A stretch of 46,993 bases of DNA from a virus. Its lineage: Duplodnaviria > Heunggongvirae > Uroviricota > Caudoviricetes. The notes beneath the pieces were generated by a model that was not told the DNA's origin, searched no databases, and saw only the letters and a list, made by a program, of their open reading frames with translations. Position 1 is the stretch's first letter; every line of letters begins with the position of its first letter. Below, in pieces: positions 33,842-34,366 of this stretch. A program made the translations under genes and the position numbers. The stretch lies in IMG/VR virus record IMGVR_UViG_2529293060_000009; one strand, given 5' to 3'.

Positions 33842-34366
33842 ATGAAGTTATGGCCTGTGTTGACTGGCATTGCACTCTCTTTCACTCTTATAGCATGTAA
33901 GGCCCCGACACCACCTAAAGGTGTGCAGCCGATTACAAATTTTGACGCCAACCGCTACCTCGGAAAATGGTATGAAATAGCTCGCCTCGAGAACTGGTTC
34001 GAACGTGGTCTGGAACAGGTCAGCGCTACTTATGAAAAACGGAACGACGGAGGGATTCGCGTACTTAACCGTGGATACGATCCAACGAAAAACAAATGGA
34101 GCGAGAGCGAAGGTAAAGCATACTTTACTGGAGATACTAAAACTGCAGCGTTGAAAGTTTCGTTTTTTGGCCCCTTCTATGGTGGCTATAATGTAATCAA
34201 ACTGGATGATGAGTATAAGTATGCTCTTGTCAGTGGTCCGAACAGAGAATACCTATGGATTCTGGCAAGGACCCAAACTATTCCAGATAATGTAAAAGCA
34301 GACTATGTGCGTACCGCTCAAAAGTTGGGATTCAATGTCAATGAACTATTATGGGTTAAACAATAA
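33842..34366 (+). CDS. Bacterial lipocalin (Blc-like outer-membrane lipoprotein), prophage cargo
   Basis: 174-aa ORF with lipoprotein signal (..LIAC) and lipocalin motifs (NFDANRYLGKWYEIARL; YFTGDTKTAALKVSFFGPFYGGYNVIKLD), paralogous by recollection to chromosomal Blc. Confidence 0.85.
   Translation: MKLWPVLTGIALSFTLIACKAPTPPKGVQPITNFDANRYLGKWYEIARLENWFERGLEQVSATYEKRNDGGIRVLNRGYDPTKNKWSESEGKAYFTGDTKTAALKVSFFGPFYGGYNVIKLDDEYKYALVSGPNREYLWILARTQTIPDNVKADYVRTAQKLGFNVNELLWVKQ

Follow-up and report, generated by a model that had tools for sequence, protein, structure and literature searches.

A Blc-family lipocalin gene antisense to the late genes of a lambdoid prophage at the ydfJ/Qin site

In phage lambda, the lipoprotein gene bor lies in the late region after Rz, antisense to late transcription, and is expressed from the prophage. 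It is a textbook example of lysogenic conversion, and the serum resistance it confers has been shown experimentally. The stx genes of Shiga-toxin phages occupy the slot between Q and the lysis genes, where they are co-oriented with late transcription and depend on Q. In 434, DLP12, and PA-2, the nmpC/lc porin gene lies downstream of Q and is convergent with it. A lipocalin gene has also been noted in this group of phages: blc, "a bacterial lipocalin", was listed among the morons in >50% of 19 gut lambda phages, with no analysis of its orientation, promoter, or origin (Mathieu et al. 2020, PMC6969025). That paper is the only one in the literature in which we found the gene mentioned, and no functional study of a phage-borne Blc was found.

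Here we describe the blc locus of a stretch of 46,993 nucleotides (hereafter the window) from a virus of the Caudoviricetes (IMG/VR record IMGVR_UViG_2529293060_000009). We consider it likely, with a probability of about 0.7, that blc is a moron of a lambdoid prophage at ydfJ/Qin, which encodes a Blc lipocalin, has its own weak promoter, and would be silenced by antisense transcription after induction. The gene and its signal peptide are as follows.

33842-34366, plus strand: blc-type lipocalin gene, intact, 174 aa, from ATG to TAA, with Pfam, NCBIfam, and PDB matches
33842-33898, plus strand: lipoprotein signal peptide, residues 1-19, with the lipobox L16-I17-A18-C19 followed by K20, read from the translation

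The initial annotation had called the product a lipoprotein lipocalin of the Blc family, and the domain searches agreed with this. The protein matched Pfam Lipocalin_2 (PF08212; E 7.5e-43), NCBIfam NF007786 "outer membrane lipoprotein Blc" (score 312.6 bits, above the cut-off of 267, with residues 1-174 of 176 aligned), and the solved E. coli Blc structures 3mbt and 1qwd (E ~1e-66), of which 3mbt aligned to residues 20-174 with an E value of 8e-67. Both core motifs of lipocalins were present, namely G41-K-W-Y-E-I-A-R (GxWYEIAR) and Y137-L-W-I-L-A-R. The chromosomal Blc of E. coli (PDB 1QWD, 2ACO, 3MBT) is of the same family and length, shares the Cys19 lipobox and the GxWY motif, and aligns with the phage protein from end to end. 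The lipobox motif was kept in every Blc homologue aligned. A residue other than Asp at position +2 sorts a lipoprotein to the outer membrane. By these family rules, the phage Blc would be an exported protein, carrying its lipid on Cys19 and residing in the outer membrane. With 58.6% identity to K-12 Blc, it is assumed to bind lysophospholipids or fatty acids and to form a functional dimer, and homology with the E. coli protein suggests a role in envelope maintenance.

A disrupted fragment had been named as the finding that would speak against a functional gene. This is ruled out, because the 174-aa ORF is full length against NF007786 and is identical to the commonest public allele. The exact protein was present on at least 1000 public contigs.

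The genes around blc that bear on its transcription all lie on the opposite strand.

34522-34914, minus strand: antiterminator Q of the Q21/82-type family (PF06530, E 8e-51)
34550-34521, minus strand: TGGAGA-18-AATAAT, the sole promoter-scan match near the candidate for the late promoter pR' listed next
34481-34509, minus strand: candidate pR', TTGCTG-17-TAACAT, the best by eye, weak and below the scan threshold
34390-34423, minus strand: intrinsic terminator, tR'-like, with a 9-bp G+C-rich stem (34423-34400) followed by T7
31377-32336, minus strand: ybgA-like gene with a 2-thiouracil desulfurase (TudS/DUF523) domain and DUF1722 (Pfam), the divergent partner of blc
30257-30979, minus strand: AraC-family regulator gene with HTH_18 and HTH_AraC domains, between ybgA and the lysis genes
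29851-30150, minus strand: putative holin ORF, by position only
29535-29846, minus strand: DUF1327 ORF
29005-29538, minus strand: lysozyme gene
28511-29008, minus strand: DUF2514 ORF, read as a spanin (Rz-like) gene
23435-26031, minus strand: large ORF, read as terminase by size and position
down to about 3300, minus strand: large ORFs, read as head and tail genes by size and position

The blc and Q genes are convergent, with 155 bp between their stop codons in the window, and Q also showed a distant match to the Q21 structures 6p18 and 6jnx. The hairpin between the two genes was almost invariant among 39 distinct phage flanking sequences. On the minus strand it had a folding energy of -19.1 kcal/mol (z -4.45), whereas the same hairpin on the plus strand lacked a U tract and had a z of only -1.5, so that it is the Q-associated late terminator and a poor terminator for blc. 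Both late-promoter candidates are weak and lie between Q and this terminator, upstream of the latter. The sole Rfam match near blc, of the hairpin to a toxic-sRNA family, was sub-threshold (28.6 bits against 50) and was taken as chance.

All of the lysis, terminase, head, and tail genes lie on the minus strand, and a Q-modified polymerase must therefore transcribe blc in antisense to reach them. This bears out two further points of the initial annotation, which had put the gene between a Q-proximal terminator and an insertion element and antisense to Q-antiterminated late transcription. Upon induction, RNA polymerase modified by Q and starting downstream of Q would read through the terminator at 34423-34395, and the late transcript would then cross blc in antisense before covering ybgA and the AraC-like gene and, beyond them, the lysis and structural genes. 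This antisense transcription may switch blc off by transcriptional interference. Before induction, Blc could be made in the lysogen from its own putative promoter, and lysogen-specific expression would be the prediction from this layout. The parallel with lambda bor lies in this layout; the two proteins are unrelated, and bor follows Rz whereas blc follows Q. The orientation of bor is the same in the gut phage Lambda_2E9, where it is annotated on the opposite strand. The stx genes are co-oriented with late transcription whereas blc is antisense to it, and therefore opposite regulation is predicted.

The same convergent layout could also act at the RNA level. By analogy with lambda paQ, read-through from blc into the late promoter and antisense to Q would damp leaky late expression, and late transcription would in turn silence blc. 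The conserved convergence of the two genes, the lack of a U tract after the plus-strand hairpin, the failure to find any plus-strand terminator up to position 35000, and the presence of nmpC in the same convergent position in 434 are all compatible with such a role. However, the idea is inferential throughout, the promoter of blc seems weak, untranslated read-through could be stopped by Rho, and purifying selection on Blc means that its coding function is important in any event. We regard this explanation as very unlikely.

The upstream region of blc contains the following elements.

33832-33835, plus strand: Shine-Dalgarno sequence AGGA, 6 nt ahead of the start codon and unchanged across 39 distinct phage upstream sequences
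33804-33809, plus strand: candidate blc -10, CATACT, proposed from positional homology
32437-32454, no strand assigned: dyad TTCCTA-N6-TAGGAA, native to the region upstream of blc and moved 1.3 kb from the gene by the insertion element

The 40 nt ahead of the ATG were almost invariant among the 39 distinct flanking sequences, and the ybgA-proximal part of the intergenic region varied more. No sigma-70 consensus promoter was found upstream of blc in the promoter scan. CATACT matches in position CTACACTT upstream of K-12 blc and of the Enterobacter-type blc loci described below, and K-12 blc has a similar -10-like element (CTACACTTAG, 27 nt ahead of the ATG) at a similar distance from the start codon. 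In the alignment of upstream regions, the -10-like block of the chromosomal Enterobacter-type loci reads TGCACTACACTTAA, and that of the phage TTTCATACTTAC. The phage CATACTTAC corresponds in the alignment to CTACACTTA(G/A) in blc of K-12 and the Enterobacter-type loci, without C at -13 and T at -12. The first position of the candidate -10 is C or A rather than T, and no -35 is recognisable. On this positional homology, CATACT at 33804-33809 is the putative blc -10, and blc would form a separate transcription unit with a weak promoter just upstream of its ATG, possibly of the stationary-phase (sigma-S) type. K-12 blc is described as RpoS-dependent in PMC4512719, which cites Bishop 1995.

Two other promoter types were considered and rejected. 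For sigma-E, GGAAAGTT in the native upstream region is -35-like, with no matching -10 at the right spacing by eye; this motif is split by the insertion element in the window. For a MerR-type long-spacer promoter with a dyad, a possible palindrome was seen in Buttiauxella and none in the phage sequence. An AATATAsTAsGAA core was kept in the chromosomal Enterobacter-type loci, and in the phage it forms part of the dyad.

The insertion element lies within the divergent ybgA-blc intergenic region, which is 192 bp long in the uninterrupted locus.

32459-33768, minus strand: IS3-family element, IS629-like, 1310 bp, with junctions set against the uninterrupted locus of E. coli 503829

It lies 70 nt upstream of the blc ATG, is flanked by a GTT target duplication (32456-32458 and 33769-33771), and contains IS3-type OrfA and OrfB domains with an ALIL frameshift pseudoknot. 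The initial annotation had named it IS629. Membership in the IS3 family, the length and organisation shared with IS629, and the 3-bp duplication agree with that name, but identity to the IS629 annotated in phage BP-4795 was only 83.9% over 1310 nt. By usual ISfinder practice, an element takes the name of a reference element at 95% nucleotide identity or more, and we therefore call it IS629-like rather than IS629 proper. A second copy at 43501-44810 has the same orientation and differs by 1 nt; recombination between the two would delete 11 kb with blc, Q, hok/sok, and AbiH. No insertion at this site was found in any of the 5426 complete E. coli genomes searched.

The element splits the native upstream region of blc and leaves the coding sequence and, as proposed here, the core promoter intact. 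A total of 120 bp of native upstream DNA, including the conserved dyad, is cut off from the gene, and the expression of blc in the window prophage could therefore differ from that in its relatives. Since CATACT lies downstream of the insertion, the candidate core promoter is retained. An outward promoter at the end of the element that might drive blc was found neither by scan nor by eye.

To place the locus among related phages, 109 phage or prophage contexts were compared, comprising IMG/VR contigs, three annotated records, one contaminant MAG contig, and the window. The order Q (minus), ~162 bp, blc (plus), 193 bp, ybgA/TudS-DUF1722 (minus) was conserved in 103 of the 109, so the layout of lysogenic conversion proposed for the window is a general one. 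An AraC-like gene followed ybgA in 100 of the 102 contexts that could be evaluated. The module also occurs in viable phages (the Lambda_ev series, 1H12, and IdasGreatGrand), and the blc-Q junction was found in 1038 of 5426 complete E. coli genomes (~19%). The gut Lambda_ev series and 1H12 have this gene (94-96% identity) at an equivalent position, with Q (minus), blc (plus), ybgA (minus), and then the lysis genes. The window differs from these gut phages in its IS629-like insertion 70 nt before the ATG and in its W52/E65/Q145/N150 allele. All Blc matches in the viral collection belonged to one lineage of E. coli phages. The contaminant is a 2.1-kb contig, JARKOR010000135.1, which was assigned, almost certainly wrongly, to a "Candidatus Nanosynbacter" bin and which carries the ybgA-blc-Q module of E. 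coli phages at 97% identity. One EDL933 region examined was a different prophage without blc or an AraC gene.

The gene was intact in all 109 phage contexts. There were 18 nucleotide alleles and 10 protein variants, and with a dN/dS of 0.10-0.28 relative to the window allele, blc is under purifying selection. Such conservation bears on whom the protein serves. One alternative to the moron reading is a lipoprotein that serves the phage itself, through superinfection exclusion or receptor masking, as for Cor of phi80/N15 and Llp of T5, or through protection against lysis from without by lysophospholipid capture. A strictly conserved outer-membrane lipoprotein of a temperate phage, under purifying selection, would suit such a role, and membrane proteins, including a superinfection-exclusion gene, dominate lambda morons (Mathieu et al., PMC6969025). 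However, the protein shows no sequence similarity to Cor or Llp; it is a full-length, typical Blc lipocalin, and its nearest relatives lie in chromosomal, non-phage loci. A role of this kind appears quite unlikely to us.

The linkage of blc to its neighbours raises a further alternative, in which the gene is a neutral passenger locked between the promoter-terminator unit of Q and the late genes and hitch-hiking on a successful Q module. The Q allele (at least 93% nucleotide identity) and blc always occurred together, with the 434-type Q the slot holds another gene, and the invariant spacing fits a single capture event. A neutral ORF of 525 nt should nevertheless have picked up frameshifts or stop codons in some copies, yet all 109 copies were intact with a dN/dS of 0.1-0.28 over 18 alleles, and the translation-initiation region was almost invariant whereas the distal intergenic DNA was variable. 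We thus think it rather improbable that blc is a mere passenger, and prefer to read it as a moron of the prophage.

The comparison with 434-type phages is consistent with the moron reading. In 434, mEp332, and other phages with a Q of ~85% nucleotide identity, homology with the blc phages stops at the 3' end of Q. In the window blc sits between Q and the lysis genes; in 434 its slot is taken by nmpC, which is interrupted by IS5 and is likewise convergent with Q, although it encodes a porin and not a lipocalin. The presence of nmpC there indicates that the slot holds interchangeable outer-membrane cargo that is dispensable for lytic growth. Phage 434 also carries an LpxR lipid A deacylase gene just upstream of Q on the opposite strand, and the neighbourhood of Q appears as a repeated site of antisense outer-membrane genes.

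The initial annotation had further called the gene a Blc paralog. Its assignment to the Blc family holds; descent by duplication of the host gene does not. The phage Blc was 58.6% identical to K-12 Blc (b4149), which lies in the ampC-blc-gdx locus rather than in the slot between Q and the lysis gene S and belongs to a separate lineage. Identity was higher, at 73-79%, to a second type of Blc that occurs in Enterobacter, Leclercia, Buttiauxella, Huaxiibacter, Raoultella, and Kosakonia. In a neighbour-joining tree, the phage Blc nested in the clade of these ybgA-linked proteins and outside the frd/ampC-gdx clade, and Buttiauxella izardii carries both types. Identity, synteny, and the tree together rule out an ortholog or a recent duplicate of the E. 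coli chromosomal gene. Given 58.6% identity to the host protein against 73-79% to the separate ybgA-linked lineage, the phage blc is a horizontally acquired relative.

The neighbours of the second blc point to the source. In Enterobacter, Leclercia, Buttiauxella, Huaxiibacter, and Raoultella, a ybgA that is 70-72% identical to the phage ybgA lies upstream of it in divergent orientation; for Kosakonia, no ybgA was detected in the 4-kb flanking sequences. An MlrA-like MerR regulator gene, often together with a transthyretin-like gene, lies between the second blc and ybgA, and no Q or other phage genes were found in the flanks of the chromosomal loci. The second blc, divergent from an operon of MlrA-like MerR regulator, transthyretin-like gene, and ybgA, looks like a small undescribed regulon. 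The phage locus shares upstream motifs with these loci and has lost the MlrA-like and transthyretin-like genes. Thus blc and ybgA were probably captured jointly from an Enterobacter-type chromosomal locus with loss of the MlrA-like regulator, and a single capture of the two genes is the simplest reading. In the phage, the thiouracil desulfidase gene (ybgA) sits in the late operon and on the late strand.

The AraC-like gene is much richer in AT, with a GC of 0.31-0.34 where blc and ybgA have 0.41-0.48, and the Enterobacter-type loci lack an equivalent of it; for these reasons it was probably a separate arrival. It may be akin to the prophage regulators PatE, PsrA, PsrB, and AppY, which act in acid resistance and type III secretion.

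The window allele (W52/E65/Q145/N150) is one of two major phage alleles and the commonest public one. Codon 52 (33995-33997) encodes Trp in this allele and Arg in K-12 Blc and every ybgA-linked Blc aligned; E65 and Q145 are also derived residues. Arg52 is a residue of the pocket entrance in the binding of lysophosphatidylethanolamine by Blc (PMC7026729). A more elaborate explanation would join this change to the origin of the module. According to it, blc and ybgA are a stress cassette taken up in one piece from an MlrA-like-regulated chromosomal locus of Enterobacter-type bacteria and freed from its regulator, with its two halves wired to opposite states of the life cycle: the lysogen would express blc until Q-dependent antisense transcription shut it down, ybgA would travel on the late transcript, and transcripts reading on from blc into pR' and Q would help to keep the late genes quiet. 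W52 Blc would then alter lysophospholipid handling in about one-fifth of E. coli strains. If true, gut-host effects like those reported for Blc G84E would be possible. We consider this combined explanation unlikely.

Beyond blc, the prophage, which adjoins ydfJ, the Qin site, carries other cargo.

27888-28305, minus strand: cspA-type thermoregulator with cold-shock gene
36855-37029, minus strand: hok/sok module
37425-39826, plus strand: AbiH abortive-infection gene and, after it, a 465-aa ORF without a Pfam match
45455-45506, plus strand: DicF RNA

The early region is Rac/Qin-like, with a YdaT toxin domain, an HTH repressor-type ORF, and DicF, and the prophage contains two IS copies. The gene quuQ encodes the Qin antiterminator. 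Changes in "blc" and "quuQ" are listed together for the same isolates of evolved peptidomimetic-resistant E. coli in the mutation table of PMC3764026, and such co-occurring changes would fit variation of the phage module rather than of the chromosomal blc.

Our analysis confirms a moron whose existence and layout are ordinary, since blc had already been listed as such (PMC6969025) and the antisense arrangement is classic in bor and nmpC. What may be new is the probable capture of blc together with ybgA from an Enterobacter-type locus, the almost complete linkage of blc to one Q allele, the separation of blc from its native upstream region by an insertion element in the window, and the allele-specific R52W change. 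A second, phage-borne Blc in about one-fifth of complete E. coli genomes represents a widespread accessory envelope protein. Lysophospholipid retention and effects on the gut barrier have been associated with the chromosomal Blc (PMC7026729), and an extra, diverged copy under phage control could therefore matter for host fitness.
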